IMG/VR virus record: IMGVR_UViG_3300030330_006035
Coordinates: 1 to 52,208 of that record
Direction: 5' to 3' (one strand)
Length of the DNA stretch: 52,208 nt
DNA from: a virus
Both the position numbers and the translations under genes were made by a program. Below are positions 3,244 to 52,208 of the stretch, in pieces; the first letter of the stretch is position 1; every line of letters begins with the position of its first letter. Below the pieces are notes generated by a model. It saw nothing but the letters and a program-made list of their open reading frames with translations, had not been told where the DNA came from and did not search any database.

Positions 3244-3510
3244 ATGATCAAGATTACCTACGGAATCGGCAGAGCCGTGAAGTCACACATGCAGGCTGCA
3301 TCAATGGCCCATGCTCTGCTGACTGACAATCCGCACAACTGGGTGCGTATACAAAATGCAGATGCAGATTGGGCACGCATCATGCACACACACCCAGACA
3401 ACACAGTCCACACTTTCAGTGAGGGCTCAACCAAGGACGTCGACGCTGATCTCCAAGCCCTGGAGAATCACGATCGGCAGAACCCGATGCTTCCTGAGGA
3501 TCGGGGATAA
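3244..3510 (+). CDS. Hypothetical protein (88 aa).
   Basis: ORF bounded by the terminator at 3189-3228 and a GC hairpin at about 3512-3547. Confidence 0.6.
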   Translation: MIKITYGIGRAVKSHMQAASMAHALLTDNPHNWVRIQNADADWARIMHTHPDNTVHTFSEGSTKDVDADLQALENHDRQNPMLPEDRG

Positions 3511-3718
3511 CACACACGAGGCCGCGCTTCGCGCCTCGTGCGTGTCAACAGGCAGTGATGACAAGATCTTGACAGGTTCCTTGATCTGTAAGGATGATCG
3601 GCAGAACCCCGACGGCGTTGCCGGTGGACGGGTGATGCCTAGTCTCCACGTCATCACTGTCATTTACACCTCTCATGGTGGGAGGTGCGACATCTTATTT
3701 CTCTGCAGGAGATAACCC

Positions 3719-3994
3719 ATGAGCGATTGCTCTGTATCGTTTGGCGACCTCGTCAAGAAATACTCTTCACCCGTTGACTCAAAGCGAGTCGAGATCGGCG
3801 CCGCTGCCGGTAACAAACTCCGTGAACTCAACACGGCCATCCAAGGTTGTCAGTGTGAACTGGCTGACTACCAAGGAAAGAAAGACAAACTCGTTGCTCT
3901 TGTCCAAGCGGTAGAGTCGACTGATTCCGAGGCCAGTCTTGTTGCCCTCGGCCAGCACCTGGGTCTGGTCAAACCCACGGAGGGATGTGACTAA
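3719..3994 (+). CDS. Hypothetical protein (91 aa), first gene of the Ubl operon.
   Basis: RBS AGGAGA at 3706-3711. Its stop overlaps the Ubl start (TAATG). Confidence 0.65.
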   Translation: MSDCSVSFGDLVKKYSSPVDSKRVEIGAAAGNKLRELNTAIQGCQCELADYQGKKDKLVALVQAVESTDSEASLVALGQHLGLVKPTEGCD

Positions 3995-4212
3995 TGATCA
4001 CTGTCAAACTCCTGGACTCGTCAGCCACTGGCGGCACTCGCAATGTCGAGGTCTCCACTGGCACGACTGTGTCCCAGCTCATCAGCGCACACACTGGTGC
4101 CAACCCTGAATCCTGCATGGTCCGTGTGAACCGTGCAACCGCAGACCTGGAGACTATCATCACCGATGGCGACCGGGTGACCGTCACGCCCACCAACATC
4201 AAGGGCGCCTGA
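3994..4212 (+). CDS. Ubiquitin-like beta-grasp protein of ThiS/MoaD type (72 aa).
   Basis: MITVKL...TVSQLI...VRVNRATADLETIITDGDRVTVTPTNIKGA shows the classic ThiS/MoaD layout, including the DGD-[RK]-V motif and a near-C-terminal Gly. It sits in an operon with E2-, JAB- and E1-like genes. Confidence 0.75.
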   Translation: MITVKLLDSSATGGTRNVEVSTGTTVSQLISAHTGANPESCMVRVNRATADLETIITDGDRVTVTPTNIKGA

Positions 4213-4277
4213 TCCCCCCTCCAGAGGGGTGGGGCTACTCATACTCCGGCCTCACCCCTCGCCCCTTGGGAGCAACC

Positions 4278-5165
4278 ATGAACACCAAAGAACTAGCACA
4301 ACACATTGTGCGGCAGTCTGACGGCACCACGTTGGACGAGATACAGTCACGCAGCAGGATGCTATCCAAGTCGCTGCGCAAAATCCGAATGCTCGAGAGA
4401 CAACTCGTACAAGACGGTGACACCACGAAAATCCAACAACAATGGGTTCGCTTACGTCGCAAGGTCGACATCGCAGTGAACAAGCCATACAGCTGGTCCG
4501 CCTCTGCTGATCGGATCGAATCAGAACTGGCAGAACTTCCACTGTGTGAGACACCTGTCATGCGTGAGTATCTACCGGGCGGCAAGTGGCAAGAGGTATC
4601 CGAAACCCCCCACTACTTGCAGTGGCTACACGAATGCAAACTTCACATGCCAGATGGATCAGTCGAAGACATGGGCACATTCTTTGTTCGTGTCAGCACA
4701 GACCGCAGAGCCATGGGGTCAGGCATAATGGTCTACCCTCACAAGAACTGCTATGACTTTCACAGCAGTCACCCTCACGTGGGGTCAAGCTATCACTTGT
4801 GCACAGGCGAAGCAGATCGAATGATTGCAAGCCTACGTAAGACACACGACTGGGCTGCACTTTATGACATCGTGAGTGGCACGCTTGACACATTCAATCC
4901 TGACTCTCCCTTCTGGCGCATCGACCGCATGCACCAAGAGATGAAGCGATGCAGGAGATGTGGACACGACCCGGAACACTATCGTTCACCTGCCAGGCAG
5001 ATGCACGTAGATCCTGACTACAGATCTGACGGCCCTTATCGACCTCGCTTTGTCTGCTCCGAGTGTATCGAAGCAGAACGTAGAGCCGTATTCAAAAACG
5101 CATTGAGAGATGCACAACGTGGACACCACACCGAAATAGCACGGAGACGTTATGACAACCCCTAA
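4278..5165 (+). CDS. E2 (UBC)-like protein with a helical N-terminal extension and a C-terminal CxxC...CxxC zinc ribbon (295 aa).
   Basis: SSHPHVGSSYHLCTGE is an HPN-type motif followed by a candidate catalytic Cys. C-terminal CRRC...(about 30 aa)...CSEC. ATG at 4278 lies 6 nt after GGGAG; the ORF track offers TTG at 4266. Confidence 0.6.
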   Translation: MNTKELAQHIVRQSDGTTLDEIQSRSRMLSKSLRKIRMLERQLVQDGDTTKIQQQWVRLRRKVDIAVNKPYSWSASADRIESELAELPLCETPVMREYLPGGKWQEVSETPHYLQWLHECKLHMPDGSVEDMGTFFVRVSTDRRAMGSGIMVYPHKNCYDFHSSHPHVGSSYHLCTGEADRMIASLRKTHDWAALYDIVSGTLDTFNPDSPFWRIDRMHQEMKRCRRCGHDPEHYRSPARQMHVDPDYRSDGPYRPRFVCSECIEAERRAVFKNALRDAQRGHHTEIARRRYDNP

Positions 5166-5742
5166 ACTGAACTTCACCCCTGACACATGGTGTCAGTTGA
5201 ACTACATGTGCAAGCGAGCCAGCACTGAGATCGGCTGCTTTGCAATCACCCATCCCGATGACCGTCTGTTTGTGACAGACCTGTGGTTCCCCAAGCAGGA
5301 ATGCACCGCAGCAACAGTCGAGTTCGACGACGAGAGTATCGCCGAAGAGATCGACCGACTGTCGGACACACACCCTATGGACGAGTGCTTCCGCATCTGG
5401 ATTCACACTCACCCAGGTGACAGCCCCAACCCCAGTGGCACAGACGAGGAGACCTTCTCCAAAGTCCTCGGCCACTTCGACTGGGCAGTCATGGCGATCC
5501 TTGCCAAGGGCGGCAAGTCATACGCCCGCATCAAGCATGATGCACCTGCTGGTATCACCGAGGGCAAGATCGAGTACAACATTCCCATGGGCATGTACAC
5601 CGACGGCTACGAAGAGTGGGATCAGATCCTTGCAGACAAGGTATCGAAGCGCACGTTCCAAGCAACAACCAAGACGTACCAAGGGGGACATTTCTACGGA
5701 GATTGGGATCGTTACTACGACACGAAAGGGAAATTCAAATGA
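5152..5742 (+). CDS. JAB/MPN (JAMM) metallopeptidase (196 aa).
   Basis: Complete JAMM signature: Glu in ASTEIGCF, then IHTHPGDSPNPSGTD (HxH-x7-S-xx-D). 14-nt overlap with the E2-like gene. Confidence 0.85.
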   Translation: MTTPKLNFTPDTWCQLNYMCKRASTEIGCFAITHPDDRLFVTDLWFPKQECTAATVEFDDESIAEEIDRLSDTHPMDECFRIWIHTHPGDSPNPSGTDEETFSKVLGHFDWAVMAILAKGGKSYARIKHDAPAGITEGKIEYNIPMGMYTDGYEEWDQILADKVSKRTFQATTKTYQGGHFYGDWDRYYDTKGKFK

Positions 5743-6392
5743 GTACGACTCAACGATTCAATGGCATCCTTGACCCCGACATGATGTTCGACCAGCGTGT
5801 CGTCATCGTCGGCGTGGGTGCAGTGGGCAACAACCTTGCTCGCATCATCGCAGGCATGAACCCTGGCAGCCTTGTCCTTGTCGACCCTGATGTGGTTGAC
5901 GAAGAGAACGTGGGTCCTCAGATGTACCACCCACGTAGCATCGATGAACCCAAAGTCGCTGCATGTGCAGACAGCCTGGTCATGGACAACGCAGTGCCTC
6001 TGCCCAACAGAGCCCCCAGCCCTGCAGTCAACAAGTATCTTGACATGGCAACGTGTGTCTTCCTCTGTGTCGACAGCATGGAAGCACGGGGTGAGATCAT
6101 GGACTACCTCACACGTGAGGGACAGCAGCCTGCCAACTGCAAGGTGATCGACACACGCATGGGTGCGGAGACGTACCAGGTGTGGGATGCAACCACATCG
6201 GAGTGGACAGAGAACTGGTTCACCGATGCGGAGTCACTGCTTGAGGTGTGCAATGCACGCAGCACACCGTGGTGTGCAACCATGTGTGCATCACACGCTG
6301 CCTTCTACTGGTCACAGCTCCTCCGTGATGAGGAGATGCCAACGCACATCATCCACGATCTGCGAACCAACGAGGTGGTGCCAGTTGGGTGA
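5739..6392 (+). CDS. E1-like ThiF/MoeB-family adenylyltransferase, minimal form (217 aa).
   Basis: VVIVGVGAVGNNLA (GxGxxG Rossmann motif), LVDPDVVDEENVGPQ and FLCVDSMEAR match ThiF/MoeB/E1 adenylation-domain motifs. ATGA overlap with the JAB gene. Confidence 0.8.
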   Translation: MSTTQRFNGILDPDMMFDQRVVIVGVGAVGNNLARIIAGMNPGSLVLVDPDVVDEENVGPQMYHPRSIDEPKVAACADSLVMDNAVPLPNRAPSPAVNKYLDMATCVFLCVDSMEARGEIMDYLTREGQQPANCKVIDTRMGAETYQVWDATTSEWTENWFTDAESLLEVCNARSTPWCATMCASHAAFYWSQLLRDEEMPTHIIHDLRTNEVVPVG

Positions 6393-6456
6393 CGGAGCAC
6401 TACCATCCCAGTTCTCTTGTGAAGAACAAGAAGAAACAAGACTGGGCAAATTTATC

Positions 6457-6894
6457 ATGAAACACGGAGTGGTTCTCACGGCAATCATCTGCCCGAGGTT
6501 CCAACACAGACAGGACTTCAAAGAGTTCATTCCGTATGACGCTTGTCTTACATTCCCTGGGCTCGGCCTCATCAACAGATGGGTTATGTTTAACGATGAA
6601 CCAGTACTACCCTCGATGGGCCGAGCCCCAGGTGTAAGCGCGTATGACTTTCTCGATGACACCCTGCGTGAGTTTGCACTGCTGGAGGAGGCACGCATGT
6701 TCTCCTCTGGCAGAGACGACGGGTTCAAGTACTGGTGTCATGACTCCAACATGGACGAGCGACTCATGTCTTCTTACTGTTTGTTTGACGACATCCGACA
6801 AGCCCATGACAAAGCGAGAGTCATACTGCCCAGTGCAGTGTGGACAGAAATGGTAGAGGCAAGGGTTGACGACGACGCTGACAGTACTAAGTGA
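6457..6894 (+). CDS. Hypothetical protein (145 aa).
   Basis: ATG at 6457. The upstream part of ORF 6163-6894 overlaps the E1-like gene out of frame. Confidence 0.55.
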   Translation: MKHGVVLTAIICPRFQHRQDFKEFIPYDACLTFPGLGLINRWVMFNDEPVLPSMGRAPGVSAYDFLDDTLREFALLEEARMFSSGRDDGFKYWCHDSNMDERLMSSYCLFDDIRQAHDKARVILPSAVWTEMVEARVDDDADSTK

Positions 6895-7531
6895 TCACCG
6901 TGATTGCACTGAATGCGAGCTGCATATGCAGGCCCCTGGTGTGCCAAAGTCTATTGGCATCGGGGCGCGTCGGCTCGGTCTCGAGCCGCCTGCTCCCGCT
7001 GTTGTATACATCGGCAGGAACCCTGGCTACAACGAGGATGATCAAGGTCACCCCTTTGTAGGTAAGTCAGGCAAACTCCTGCATGCTGTGTACATAGACG
7101 GCATCAACCTGCGTGAACGCGCAACTATCTACCTCATGAATGGTGTGCGTTGCTACACAATCAAGGACGAACCTCCCAAGGCACGCCACTGGAAAGCATG
7201 CATGCCCTACTCTATCCAAGAACTCGAACAGATAAAGGAACAACATGACAGAGTTGGAGTTGTATTACTGGGTGGGGATTGTACTTCTCATGGGTATCGT
7301 CATATGCTCGGAGTTAAAGGAATGAATCTGACCAAGGGCATCAATAACAATGGAGATACCCACAATGATGTGACAGTCTTTTCAACCTACCACCCTTCTG
7401 CGGTACTGCGTGATCCAAACTACATCAACGCAGTCCACGACCACAATGGCTTGATCTCCGCATGGCTCGACGGAGTAATGGCAGTACCATCAGAGCCAAA
7501 CATAATTCAACCGAGGATACCCCATGTCTGA
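6866..7531 (+). CDS. Uracil-DNA glycosylase, family 4.
   Basis: CTECELH...IGRNPGYNEDDQGHPFVGKSGKLL...STYHPSAVLR matches UDG family-4 motifs (GE.PG..ED..G.PF.G.aG.lL; HPS). TTG start at 6866. Confidence 0.8.
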   Translation: MTTTLTVLSDHRDCTECELHMQAPGVPKSIGIGARRLGLEPPAPAVVYIGRNPGYNEDDQGHPFVGKSGKLLHAVYIDGINLRERATIYLMNGVRCYTIKDEPPKARHWKACMPYSIQELEQIKEQHDRVGVVLLGGDCTSHGYRHMLGVKGMNLTKGINNNGDTHNDVTVFSTYHPSAVLRDPNYINAVHDHNGLISAWLDGVMAVPSEPNIIQPRIPHV

Positions 7532-7871
7532 TTTGAAAAAGAAATACGAGGTTATGGACTACCTCAAACGTAACAAGTCCAAGTTCTCTCACGCTTCTAT
7601 CCGCGTTGTATGCGAAGAAGTGAACACCATGTTCGATGTCCTGTACAGCCAGTACGTAATGCGTAAGATGATGGAAGCTGCAGGCGTTGCACTCAGACGG
7701 AACTCAATGAAGAAGGTGTCTATCTCTGAGATGGCCGAGGCTGTGAACTCTATCAAGATCGACCCTCCGTCCAACAAAGATCTCAAAGATCAACTCGATC
7801 ACATGGAGAAGAAGCTTGACTTTGTCTGCGACTTTATCCAATATGCAAAGACCGGTGAAGTACCCCAGTGA
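7524..7871 (+). CDS. Hypothetical protein (115 aa).
   Basis: ORF coupled on both sides (ATGTCTGA upstream, GTGA downstream). Confidence 0.6.
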   Translation: MSDLKKKYEVMDYLKRNKSKFSHASIRVVCEEVNTMFDVLYSQYVMRKMMEAAGVALRRNSMKKVSISEMAEAVNSIKIDPPSNKDLKDQLDHMEKKLDFVCDFIQYAKTGEVPQ

Positions 7872-10114
7872 CTGACTCAACCACCATATCCTTGGACATC
7901 GAGACGTACGGTGCTTGCACCGTGAACGCTGAAGGCACGCCGCTCCCTGTGCAGACAGTGTTCCATCCTCGCCGGTCTCTGCTGACGGATGGCGTCTCGT
8001 CCAAGGATCTGGTGTTGACAGTCTCGATCACTATGGTGTCCCCTCATAAGGCGGCGGGTGACTGGAATCTGCAAGCTCTTGCAGATGCACAAGCCGGGGA
8101 CACCATGGTTTTTGAACTGCACCGCAGCGAACACCGTCACCGCCTCAGGCAGTGGCTGTTCCATGTGGACACCATCATTGGTATGAACCTGCAGTTCGAC
8201 ATCCAATACCTACGTGCTCTCAATGATTTCAAGTTCGCACTCAACGGTCGCCACCAACTCATCGACCTGTCTGTGCTGAACTATCTGCATGACGAGACAC
8301 GACCCGAGCGATCGCTCAAGTCACTCGGACCTATCCTCCGCACTCACTCGTACGAGGCGGAGCAGACTCTTAAACACACACGCTTTGGATCTCCCTCGGA
8401 TCCCAAGCTTCTCCACTACAATGCGCAAGACACGCACAACACCTTGCTCGCCTGCCAAGAACTGGCACGTCGTATACAACGGGACTTCGGAACCACCACC
8501 AAAGCTTCCGCCGACTGCCTTCGGTTTTATTCTGACACCATCTGGTCTTGCATCAGGATGTCAGAGTCGGGCATCCCCATGGATAGAAATGCCATCCAAT
8601 CCCTAGAGTCGAACCTCATGGCTAACGCCTCCGAGGCAGTTCATAAGGCAAGAGATCGCGGACTAATCCTCGAAGGGGAGGGCTCGGGCAAGAGCAAGGA
8701 AGAGTTCATGTCTGCCGTAGTGGGGGAGCTTGGGATTCAAGATGATCCAAGGCTACAACTAACACCCAAGCAGGGGCTGATCAGCTTCTGTGAAGAGAAC
8801 AGGAAATTACTATGCTCGATGCTACCCCTGGATTCACCCCATCAGGAGATCCTTGCCCATGCTGCAACCCACAGCAAAGCCCAGAAGTTAGTGGGCAGTT
8901 ACTGTTTCCCTTTGCTGAGGCATCGGAGGAATTTCCCCACACAGATGGGTTCAGTCCTGCTGAGATCGCAGTGTTCAACGCCCACATGCGCACAATCGAC
9001 CTCGGATTTGACCTATCCAACATGGTTCGTGACCCCGAGTCCGGCGAAGGACGGCCAGGGTGACGCCGGTGGTACGAAGCAGGGCCGCATTACATGCAAA
9101 GGACCGAGTGCTCAGACGTTCCCTCGACCCATCAAGGCGTGTATCCAAAGCCGTTGGTGGGAGCATGGGGCGATCGTATCATTCGACCTCAGCCAGATTG
9201 AGCTGCGCGTTGCGGCACTACTCTCAGGCGACACGTCCCTATCCGCTGCATACAACGACAGCTTAGACTTGCACACCGATCGTGCAGTGTCTATCTTTGG
9301 CACCGCAGCATTGGAAGCCAAGTACGGCATGCTGTTTCATGACAACCCCGACTTCAAAGGACACGAAAGACAATGCGGCAAGAGGACGAATTTCGCAGAC
9401 TTGTTCAGATCTTCTGCACCCACCATGAAATCAGCGATGATGGAGGACACGGGGATCGACTTTCCGATGAGCGTCTTCGAGAAGATCGTGGCGGACAGAC
9501 CGAAGATCAGACCGGGACTATGGTCATGGCAGGAAGAGATGCTAAAGCTAGCGGAGAAGCAGGGTTACGTGGAGCTGCCGATCACTGGGCAATCAAGGTA
9601 CTTCGTAGGTTTCTCAAAGACCGACCGCCAGTCGGAAGCAAAGAACCAGCTCAACGAGATCATCAACTTCCCAATTCAAACGACAGCAGGTAACACACTG
9701 CTCAACATCCAGCATGAACTTCACCGGTCTCTCCCTGAACTCAACAGCCGGGAGCCCTGGGCATACATGTTCCTAAATATTTACGACGCGGTATACTTCG
9801 ACTGCAAGTTAGACCGTGTCTCAGAGCTCGAGCAGTTGATTGATAATGCAGTACGTGAAGTTGTTGAACGTGGGTATTGGGCAAGACTGCAAGAACTCTA
9901 CGGTCGTGAAATACCAGTGGAGTTTGATGTAGATGTATGCCAAGGATCCGAGCGTGGTGCAACGCCAACAAGTAATGACGAACCTTCTAGTGGACCATGG
10001 ACTGTCGATAGCGGAAGTGGCCACCCGAGTGGGCCTTTCGAAGAAGCGAGTCTATTCGTTCGCAAGGTCCAGGAGTCTTCCATACAATCGACCTGTGAAG
10101 CAGGGGGGCCGTAA
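7868..10114 (+). CDS. Family-A (Pol I-like) DNA polymerase with a 3'-5' exonuclease domain.
   Basis: Exo motifs: SLDIETYG, GMNLQFDIQYL, YNAQDTHN. Pol motif A SFDLSQIELRVAALLSGD, motif B RQCGKRTNFADLF, motif C LNIYDAVYFD. The conserved part appears to end near 9935. The last ~60 codons are low-complexity and overlap the ORF at 9933. Confidence 0.9.
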   Translation: MTDSTTISLDIETYGACTVNAEGTPLPVQTVFHPRRSLLTDGVSSKDLVLTVSITMVSPHKAAGDWNLQALADAQAGDTMVFELHRSEHRHRLRQWLFHVDTIIGMNLQFDIQYLRALNDFKFALNGRHQLIDLSVLNYLHDETRPERSLKSLGPILRTHSYEAEQTLKHTRFGSPSDPKLLHYNAQDTHNTLLACQELARRIQRDFGTTTKASADCLRFYSDTIWSCIRMSESGIPMDRNAIQSLESNLMANASEAVHKARDRGLILEGEGSGKSKEEFMSAVVGELGIQDDPRLQLTPKQGLISFCEENRKLLCSMLPLDSPHQEILAHAATHSKAQKLVGSYCFPLLRHRRNFPTQMGSVLLRSQCSTPTCAQSTSDLTYPTWFVTPSPAKDGQGDAGGTKQGRITCKGPSAQTFPRPIKACIQSRWWEHGAIVSFDLSQIELRVAALLSGDTSLSAAYNDSLDLHTDRAVSIFGTAALEAKYGMLFHDNPDFKGHERQCGKRTNFADLFRSSAPTMKSAMMEDTGIDFPMSVFEKIVADRPKIRPGLWSWQEEMLKLAEKQGYVELPITGQSRYFVGFSKTDRQSEAKNQLNEIINFPIQTTAGNTLLNIQHELHRSLPELNSREPWAYMFLNIYDAVYFDCKLDRVSELEQLIDNAVREVVERGYWARLQELYGREIPVEFDVDVCQGSERGATPTSNDEPSSGPWTVDSGSGHPSGPFEEASLFVRKVQESSIQSTCEAGGP

Positions 10115-52109: not shown

Positions 52110-52208
52110 ATATATAGCAACAACCGGACGGCCAGGGGGTCGGACGGGGGTAGCACAGTGTGTGCTAGGCGAGCTAGCACTGTGCTACGCCGTTTGTTTG
52201 TTTGTATG
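52110..52208. repeat. Terminal identity, copy 2 (identical to 1-99).
   Basis: Same 99-nt string as the window start. Confidence 0.95.

Follow-up and report, generated by a model that had tools for sequence, protein, structure and literature searches.

The DNA analysed here, referred to as the window, is the 52,208-nucleotide IMG/VR virus record IMGVR_UViG_3300030330_006035 over its full length (positions 1–52,208), and the element of interest is a four-gene cassette that encodes, in this order, a small ubiquitin-like protein of the beta-grasp type (Ubl), an E2/UBC-like protein, a JAB/MPN+ peptidase (JAB) and a small E1-like adenylating enzyme (E1). A structured leader and a conserved open reading frame (ORF) precede the cassette, and a fast-evolving ORF and the gene for UDG follow it (Table 1). 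All four genes are present in this order with intact catalytic motifs, and the set of four is conserved across phages. The ORFs and motifs quoted by an earlier annotation of this DNA made from its letters alone (hereafter the original prediction), which had proposed a phage-encoded conjugation operon, are all found where it had placed them.

Positions 1–99 of the window are repeated exactly at 52110–52208, an assembly overlap that leaves a unit of ~52,109 bp, and therefore the window represents a complete circular (or terminally redundant) genome. Its genes are laid out in two divergent arms, with a plus-strand arm that runs from the primase (50262) across the origin up to ~16.5 kb and a minus-strand arm that spans 16.5–50.3 kb. 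It encodes a large terminase (TerL), a D5-type primase, a family-A DNA polymerase (PolA), UDG, an ERCC4 nuclease, a PD-(D/E)XK nuclease and a Sak4-like ATPase, while neither an integrase nor a repressor domain was detected in the 52-kb window; the genome is that of a phage, probably with a virulent lifestyle, as no lysogeny genes were detected. Identical and near-identical proteins occur in marine metagenomes, with cluster members that include the Tara <0.22 µm fraction, and contigs of 51–53.7 kb from this phage clade have been recovered repeatedly from marine metagenomes. The completeness of the genome, the presence of TerL, primase and PolA, and the relatives in the Tara <0.22 µm fraction together bear out the claim that the four-gene set resides on a phage chromosome. 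The cassette is part of the replication (early) arm, with the primase side at one end of it and UDG/PolA at the other, and in all clade relatives the primase–UDG interval holds it, so that its synteny is fixed.

The 72-residue product of the first gene, previously proposed to be a ThiS/MoaD-type beta-grasp protein, matches Pfam ThiS above the gathering cut-off (E 2.3e-6; 28.5 bits, cut-off 22.5), and its family profile matched ThiS and MoaD (E 0.015) as well as Urm1 in the PDB. The C-terminus of this Ubl reads TPTNIK-G71-A72, and its last two residues do not vary among 11 aligned homologues. The GA motif is C-terminal in all ~37 Ubls listed, the ends across the family following the pattern TP[TV]K[IV][ED]-G-A and then 0–6 variable residues. 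In type II Bil, the Gly97-Ala98 of the Ubl is cut after the Gly by the JAB protein BilC (PMC10557695), and by analogy the phage Ubl looks like a precursor that would be trimmed after Gly71 by the JAB of its own cassette.

This JAB retains the complete JAMM signature attributed to it, with a metal site composed of E26 and H85-T-H87-PGDSPNP-S95-GT-D98 (HTHPGDSPNPSGTD, residues 85–98), and the motif E...HxHx7Sx2D is conserved in 44 JAB homologues. Its score against Pfam Prok-JAB is 24.5 bits (E 2.7e-5), with a cut-off of 25, and it also matches the Cap3-type JAB models of PADLOC and, weakly, a tail-protein PHROG. We predict that it is the enzyme that matures the Ubl and removes it from its conjugates.

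The fourth gene encodes a protein of 217 residues that matches Pfam ThiF above the gathering score (E 1.3e-15), as expected of the ThiF/MoeB/E1 adenylation domain assigned to it, and that carries GVGAVG at residues 25–30, DPDVVDEENVGPQ at 49–61 and CVDSMEAR at 110–117. When the single protein was compared with the PDB, the best matches were ThiF and MoeB, and a profile of 19 E1 sequences retrieved Uba1 (6.5e-23), UBA7, UBA6, ThiF (3e-20), UBA5, MccB and MoeB. Fourteen residues are invariant in the 19 aligned members (R6, G25, G27, G30, D49, N57, Q61, K72, D112, R117, D138, R140, E144 and C171), and C171 is at least 95% conserved in 42; in a manual alignment, it would occupy the crossover-loop position of ThiF C184 and MoeB C187. 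Across the family, the E1 consists of a single adenylation domain of ~210–280 residues. In the source annotations, the JAB is labelled 'RPN8/RPN11' and the E1 'TcdA', but we rejected the latter identity (a tRNA ct6A dehydratase), because the E1 gene always lies within a Ubl/E2/JAB operon.

The 295-residue protein encoded between the Ubl and JAB genes comprises an N-terminal helical region (residues 1–75), a UBC-like core (77–214), a Cys4 zinc ribbon (C225/C228/C260/C263) and a C-terminal helix. The core contains the motif H165-P-H167-x7-C175-x-G177, which lies within SSHPHVGSSYHLCTGE (residues 163–178; Cys175 at nucleotide 4800), and F-N-P-D-S-P-F at 206–212. Nineteen close relatives, in which C175 and HPH are invariant, were returned by a word-indexed search, and the family amounted to 118 cluster representatives in an exhaustive profile search; for IMG/VR, where a scan with the close-clade profile recovered one relative, a motif-based family profile was used instead. 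These 118 representatives share HPH-x6/7-C-x-G, L-x-T-[YF]-N-P-x-S-P-[YF] and a CxxC zinc ribbon that follows. C175 is invariant across all of them, as the original prediction had anticipated for the cysteine of its HLC motif, and the HPH and NPxSP residues are invariant or nearly so, whereas conservation downstream of C175 is limited to G177 and A179.

Relationship to canonical E2 enzymes is indicated by profile comparisons. Two of 50 remote family members match Pfam UQ_con (best E 7.8e-7), and none of the 50 matches the Prok-E2_A-E families of Pfam. Aligned by hhalign to four canonical E2s, whose sequences were entered by hand, the family core gave a probability of 96.7% (E 4e-10), placing window residues 77–214 on residues 3–121 of UBE2D2 with helix 1, HPH/HPN, C175/C85 and NPDSP/NPDDP aligned, and the close-clade profile alone gave the identical register. 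The spacing is parallel as well, with H165-P-H167-x7-C175 corresponding to H75-P-N77-x7-C85 of UBE2D2, and N207-P-x-S-P211 to its NPDDP. The hhalign probability and the UQ_con matches among family members argue for the E2-like assignment made earlier for this ORF. A tblastn search of GenBank phages with the E2 found no match. Structural models were generated by AlphaFold2 (AF2), with a mean predicted local distance difference test score (pLDDT) of 79 for the full-length protein and of 86 for the core alone (predicted template modelling score 0.80), and both models contain a helix, a beta-meander and then three helices. In a 191-kb viral contig (L016, IMGVR_UViG_3300042731_006512), an additional ORF of 284 residues lies between the Ubl and E2 genes at 6793–7644; it has a weak second match to the hidden Markov model (HMM) of the E2 core (E 0.0027) and could represent an E2-like gene that arose by duplication or has degenerated.

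To map the cassette elsewhere, HMMs from four clade members were run over all fetched loci (~45), which included clade relatives (L001, L004–L007), metagenome contigs, eight IMG/VR viral contigs and 34 genome loci. The order Ubl-E2-JAB-E1, which the original prediction had proposed to look for in viral and metagenomic data, recurs in nearly all of these loci, with the order E2-E1-JAB in two viral contigs, and chance association is excluded because the four-gene order recurs in ~45 independent loci. The eight viral contigs range from 10 to 191 kb with a GC content of 34–54%, and genes for terminase, primase, helicase, exonuclease and head-tail adaptor proteins occur in the flanks of their cassettes. 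Nearly all of the 34 genome loci belong to metagenome-assembled genomes (MAGs) of Planctomycetota (Pirellulales, Phycisphaerae, Gimesia). The contigs are of Mb scale in several cases, and two copies are present in several of the MAGs. Homologues in these loci are recognized at E values of 1e-35 to 1e-46 for the JAB and 1e-6 to 1e-15 for the Ubl, and their flanks, which contain integrases, AAA/HerA, NACHT, type I-C Cas, Fic and TraG genes, have the flavour of mobile elements or defence islands. About a dozen of the Planctomycetota cassettes (L022–L054; e.g., L043:3529-5154) are preceded by a conserved protein of ~550 residues without a Pfam match, and this protein is absent from the window and the viral contigs.

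Neither the window nor any of the ~45 loci links the cassette to genes for thiamine, molybdopterin or siderophore synthesis, a linkage that, according to the original prediction, would have pointed to sulfur transfer rather than conjugation. Likewise, rhodanese, cysteine desulfurase, ThiG/ThiH and MoaE genes were found neither in the window nor beside the cassettes of relatives, viral contigs and Planctomycetota loci.

A weak tblastn match of the E1 led to the Crassvirales. In the uncultured phage cr106_1 (L056) and the cultured Bacteroides phage crAss001 (L058, NC_049977), there is a block with the order primase-Gp79-Gp78-Gp77-Gp76-Gp75-Gp74 (UDG)-...-resolvase-PD-(D/E)XK nuclease, which is mirrored in the window by primase ... 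E2-JAB-E1-ORF-UDG ... ERCC4 ... PD-(D/E)XK. Gp77 of crAss001, annotated as a metalloprotease domain protein, corresponds to the JAB, and the orthologue in cr106_1 exceeds the gathering score of Prok-JAB. The E1 counterpart is Gp76, which carries the annotation 'ThiF, thiamine biosynthesis' and is matched by the E1 HMM at 76–90 bits with the Cys region included. The homology of this JAB and E1 to those of the cassette is solid. In Flavobacterium phage FpV4 (L057), gp53-gp52-gp51-gp50 adjoin UDG and primase genes; gp50 (ThiF) is a clear E1, and gp51 has a weak Prok-JAB match (E 0.0076).

The proteins that occupy the E2 and Ubl positions in these phages are a lead to possible equivalents of the cassette proteins. 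Gp78 of crAss001 and gp52 of FpV4 have in common GYMHSH...CxG...PYxRL, which aligns to the E2 motif at an hhalign probability of 12.5%, and at this probability their candidacy as E2s is suggestive only. In Gp79 and gp53, the N-terminal part closes with K[IV]KSG|[AG], but their candidacy as Ubls found no support in Pfam or hhalign.

Several known systems combine related components. With type II BilABCD (Chambers et al., PMC10557695), the phage cassette shares four separate genes in the same Ubl-E2-JAB-E1 order, a single beta-grasp Ubl whose conserved Gly precedes an Ala or a short variable tail, which the JAB removes (as it presumably would in the phage cassette), the lack of an E3, and a mobile, sporadic distribution; the Bil gene order is bilA-B-C-D, equal to the cassette order (PMC11601603). 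However, the type II Bil E1 has an inactive and an active adenylation domain with an inserted CYS domain, whereas the phage E1 is one adenylation domain of 217 residues. The type II Bil E2 is defined by Cys-x5-Glu-x-His-x4-His (CEHH), whereas the phage E2 lacks conserved Glu, His and His residues after C175, has its conserved His in the upstream HPH, and contains NPxSP and a zinc ribbon, unlike type II Bil. No Bil chain in the PDB matched the cassette in sequence, and no Bil E1 was among the best 60 PDB matches of the E1 profile. Type I Bil differs further, with a two-beta-grasp Ubl that ends in Gly and a large E1 (~70 kDa band), compared with a 72-residue single-domain Ubl and a 217-residue E1 in the phage.

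Bub systems of types I and II contain the DUF6527 serine protease BubE and fusions of Ubl with E2 and of JAB with E1 (or of E2 with E1), whereas the phage proteins are four separate ones and DUF6527 has no match in the window; BubCD is a distant PDB match of the E1 profile (E 1e-12). Similarity to type II CBASS Cap2/Cap3 lies in the match of the phage E1 to the PADLOC Cap2 'E1-E2' models (E 1e-10) and of the JAB to Cap3-type models. By contrast, type II CBASS comprises a CD-NTase, an effector and a Cap2 in which E2 and E1 are fused, whereas in the phage E1 and E2 are unfused, the beta-grasp Ubl is a dedicated one, and the window has no match to a CD-NTase or effector family. We therefore rejected membership in Bil type I or II, Bub or CBASS Cap2/3 on architecture. 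The resemblance to Bil noted in the original prediction extends to the gene order and the Ubl tail, which are most like those of type II Bil, but not to the features that define Bil or CBASS.

With canonical eukaryotic E2s (UQ_con), the core of the phage E2 aligns in helix 1, the HPN motif (HPH in the phage), the spacing of the catalytic Cys, a Trp after the active site and NPxxP. It differs in the His that replaces the Asn of HPN, in its long beta-hairpins, in its added N-terminal helices and C-terminal zinc ribbon, and in the poor structural superposition of its model (template modelling score, TM, at most 0.40). Similarly, the best PDB matches of the E1 profile are the eukaryotic Uba1, UBA7 and UBA6, but unlike Uba1 or UBA5 the phage E1 is minimal and ThiF-like, without UFD, FCCH or SCCH; the phage Ubl, unlike ubiquitin, is ThiS-like in sequence. 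ThiS/ThiF and MoaD/MoeB are the best named matches of the Ubl and E1, and the E1 resembles ThiF and MoeB in size, N-terminal Arg, GxGxxG, Asp and, putatively, the crossover-loop Cys. The cassette differs from these pairs in that it is always accompanied by an E2 and a JAB and in that the Ubl ends with Gly followed by Ala and a tail, not with a free GG.

The sole previously described phage pairing of a Ubl with a JAB that we found is TAPI (Ubl) and TAPK (JAB) of lambda/T1 tail assembly (Iyer et al. 2006, PMC1779556). That pair has neither E1 nor E2, belongs to the tail module and has its Ubl fused to another domain, whereas the cassette comprises a full cascade in the replication arm. NCBIfam (June 2026) contains no model for the E2 family and none that the Ubl, JAB or E1 matched above cut-off, and in PADLOC the cassette matches generic Cap2/Cap3 domains only. 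Full-text literature searches returned no report of a phage-encoded E1-E2-Ubl-JAB cascade; mobile Ub/E1/E2/JAB operons are treated by Burroughs et al. 2011 (PMC5938088), a paper outside these searches that may list the Planctomycetota-type cassette. Taken together, we regard the cassette as a separate, unnamed variant of the Ubl-E1-E2-JAB operon type, set apart by an E2 of canonical style, by a minimal E1 and by its occurrence in phage genomes.

The four proteins have diverged at very different rates within the clade. Relative to L004 and L001, respectively, replication proteins of the window are 88–96% and 85–96% identical, and comparable values apply to the Ubl (97% and 93%) and the JAB (93% and 87%). 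Identities are 90% and 69% for the E1, 67% and 45% for the E2, and 30% and 38% for the 169-residue ORF downstream. The E2 and this ORF have thus diverged far more than the genes around them, which are 85–97% identical between these genomes. Their divergence points to diversifying selection or module swapping, and the E2, as the part expected to touch the substrate, and its neighbouring ORF appear to be diverging at the speed of an arms race.

Based on these analyses, we consider it likely that positions 3994–6392 encode a complete, self-contained Ubl conjugation cascade that the phage deploys from its replication arm, presumably with expression during infection. The scheme that follows, with every chemical step, its independence of an E3 and its target, is what we infer from the sequences and their homologues. 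The Ubl would be made as a precursor that ends in Gly71-Ala72, with up to six more residues in homologues, and the JAB/MPN+ peptidase would trim it after Gly71. The minimal E1 would then adenylate Gly71 with ATP/Mg, probably as a homodimer with Arg6 acting as a finger in trans, an arrangement proposed because the conserved N-terminal Arg is typical of ThiF/MoeB, and would take over the Ubl as a thioester on Cys171. From there, the Ubl would be handed to Cys175 in the HPH...C active site of the E2, which, without a partner E3, would attach it to lysines of specific host or phage proteins, and the JAB might also be able to reverse the mark. As no E3 is encoded, the N-terminal helices and the C-terminal zinc ribbon of the E2 are likely the elements that confer specificity. 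The targets are most likely host proteins or proteins of competing phages, since both the E2 and its neighbouring ORF evolve as fast as in an arms race. We give most weight to a role that benefits the phage in lytic infection, because the cassette has a fixed position in the replication arm of a genome without detected lysogeny genes and recurs beside replication genes in unrelated phages.

Several points weigh against this interpretation. The closest named families of the Ubl and the E1 are the sulfur-carrier pair ThiS/ThiF, and the second ATP-binding Arg of ThiF/MoeB (RQ motif) is replaced by Pro in the window E1 and by Ser in most relatives. The window E2 has no direct match in Pfam, PHROGs, PADLOC, NCBIfam or PDB sequences, its close-clade profile has no match in the PDB either, and the canonical sequences used in hhalign were, as mentioned, entered by hand. 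When the E2 models were searched with Foldseek, UBCs appeared at ranks 1, 2, 4 and 7 for the core model (E 0.3–0.8, TM 0.24–0.40) and at rank 9 at best for the full-length model (E 1.8), none of them significant. Because these UBC matches lack significance, we do not claim that the E2 fold is structurally verified; it is supported by profiles and motifs, not by structure. Moreover, in Planctomycetota a role in defence is as plausible as one in offence, because the islands there carry integrases, Cas, NACHT and HerA.

The last point leads to an alternative, namely that the cassette is a mobile anti-phage defence or superinfection exclusion system, Bil-like in tagging structural proteins of competing phages, that is merely carried by the phage. 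This would agree with the identity of the gene order to bilA-B-C-D (PMC11601603), with the surroundings and the double copies of the Planctomycetota cassettes, and with the fast evolution of the E2, which is expected of a component that recognizes an adversary. Nevertheless, we regard it as unlikely, because the cassette resides in the replication arm of a phage without detected lysogeny genes, is fixed between primase and UDG in all relatives and neighbours replication genes in other phage contigs too, and because its PADLOC matches are confined to the generic Cap2/Cap3 domains. It is also conceivable that the cassette is a counter-defence mimic, in which the JAB strips host Ubl conjugates or the Ubl, E1 and E2 titrate or mis-charge host components, rather than a system that creates functional marks itself. 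Planctomycetota, which are plausible hosts, do have close homologues of the four proteins, and deubiquitinases directed against host Ubl defences are a known theme among eukaryotic viruses. However, a deconjugase alone would suffice for this purpose, yet all four genes retain their catalytic residues in every phage locus examined, and no host system is known to target this phage. We therefore regard such mimicry as improbable.

As for the resemblance to ThiS/ThiF, the cassette might be a sulfur carrier of this type, in which the Ubl would be adenylated and then thiocarboxylated so as to supply sulfur, for example for a cofactor or for the thiolation of nucleosides or DNA close to the replication genes, and in which the JAB is a maturase only, as in CysO/Mec+. 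In addition to the best named matches (ThiS and ThiF/MoeB) and the ThiF-like size of the E1, sulfur-assimilation operons with a JAB, a ThiS/MoaD protein and an E1 do exist (Iyer 2006), and databases label the phage homologues 'thiamine biosynthesis protein'. However, the rhodanese, cysteine desulfurase, ThiG/H and MoaE partners are missing from the cassette and the flanks of the ~45 loci, an E2 with an invariant HPH...Cys, which sulfur carriers do not need, is always there, and E1s of E2/JAB operons lack rhodanese domains (Iyer et al.). We therefore consider a sulfur carrier very improbable.

If a phage-deployed conjugation cascade is indeed what the cassette encodes, its presence in phages as well as Planctomycetota implies that phages, and not hosts alone, probably use ubiquitin-style modification. 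Bil is known to tag phage tail fibres and CBASS Cap2 to prime cGAS-like enzymes, and to our knowledge, bacterial Ubl conjugation has so far been shown as host immunity only. A conserved full cascade on phage genomes would reverse this picture, implying that phages write protein marks in infection and, with the JAB, erase them; we know of no described precedent in phage biology for such a mode of host takeover or counter-defence. The E2 family also bears on the origin of canonical E2s, because it keeps HP[N/H]...Cys...NPxxP and matches UQ_con rather than the prokaryotic E2 families.

A broader and more speculative hypothesis, which we advance only tentatively, is that virulent phages possess an ancient module of Ubl, UBC-type E2, JAB and minimal E1 within a replication block common to the marine clade, the Crassvirales (crAss001 Gp79–Gp74) and Flavobacterium phages, with which they would tag host or phage proteins during infection. 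If so, protein 'ubiquitination' would be a viral weapon in bacteria and not a host defence alone, and phages would be a reservoir, and might also be a vector, for the E2 lineage that most resembles the eukaryotic ones among all those known from the prokaryotic world. Whether phages deploy such a cascade is testable in tractable phage–host pairs, one of which represents the phage lineage that is most abundant in the human gut, because crAss001 has the JAB and E1 at the same genomic position and FpV4 has a weaker JAB-like gene and an E1 in a similar setting.

The phage lineage to which the window belongs is essentially undescribed, and at the DNA level the window has no similarity to GenBank phages. 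Its family-A polymerase (7868–10114) shares at most 23% identity with any GenBank phage polymerase. When seven large proteins of the minus-strand arm were scanned against PHROGs, the large terminase alone was matched, and Pfam matches among the remaining ORFs of the genome are few.

Table 1. Genes and RNA or DNA elements in and around the cassette (positions in the window).
Feature	Position	Strand	Remarks
5' leader	3510–3718	+	RNA fold z-score -4.8; structured, precedes operon
GC-rich leader hairpin	3510–3545	+	Directly after upstream ORF
Sigma70-like TTGACA-18-GATGAT	3569–3598	+	10/12 match; not enriched vs shuffles
Proximal part of leader	~3585–3718	+	Conserved in L004 and L001; carries GGAGA ribosome-binding site
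Leader hairpin with T-rich tail, just 5' of ribosome-binding site	3667–3687	+	Compensatory changes in L004 and L001
91-residue ORF, conserved, helical, ends EGCD	3719–3994	+	TAATG overlap with Ubl gene
Ubl, 72 residues, MITVKL...TNIKGA	3994–4212	+	Pfam ThiS
Ubl-E2 spacer hairpin, GC-rich, 13-bp stem	4224–4260	+	Followed by GGGAG ribosome-binding site of E2 gene
E2/UBC-like protein, 295 residues	4278–5165	+	Family profile, motifs
JAB/MPN+ peptidase, 196 residues	5152–5742	+	14-nucleotide overlap with E2 gene; Prok-JAB
E1, 217 residues	5739–6392	+	ATGA overlap with JAB gene; Pfam ThiF
169-residue ORF, fast-evolving	6385–6894	+	Probable TTG start, 8-nucleotide overlap with E1 stop; overlaps UDG start

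Regarding the organization of the operon, translational coupling had been proposed for five consecutive ORFs. The overlaps on which this was based do exist (TAATG at 3992–3996, 14 nucleotides at 5152–5165 and ATGA at 5739–5742), but the operon is not coupled throughout, because the Ubl-E2 junction is a 65-nucleotide spacer that contains a hairpin. This hairpin has a folding energy of -36 kcal/mol (z-score -2.2), and its stem is kept through compensatory substitutions in L001, L004 and L007, the copy in L004 surrounding an insertion of ~120 nucleotides. As an attenuator, a processing site or an element of mRNA stability, it could set the expression ratio of the Ubl to the enzymes. The leader upstream of the operon, for which an Rfam search gave no match and no known RNA identity is supported, may be a transcription attenuator or another regulatory leader.

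Both ORFs that flank the four genes had been considered possible substrate or adaptor components. We rejected them as general components of the system, since their HMMs match this phage clade only. The 91-residue ORF has no match in Pfam, PHROG, PADLOC or NCBIfam and is 87, 67 and 36% identical to its relatives, and the downstream ORF has no family match in Pfam or NCBIfam. The latter had been read as 145 residues from an ATG at 6457, and this reading has to be revised, as a start at TTG 6385, which yields 169 residues, is most likely the correct one. The 24 extra N-terminal residues (L-x-DG-A/S-LPSQF) are conserved in the two relatives L001 and L004, which lack a Met where the window has ATG 6457, and the gene calls of the relatives begin 8 nucleotides before the E1 stop. 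This ORF may be an accessory or a target that is specific to the clade.

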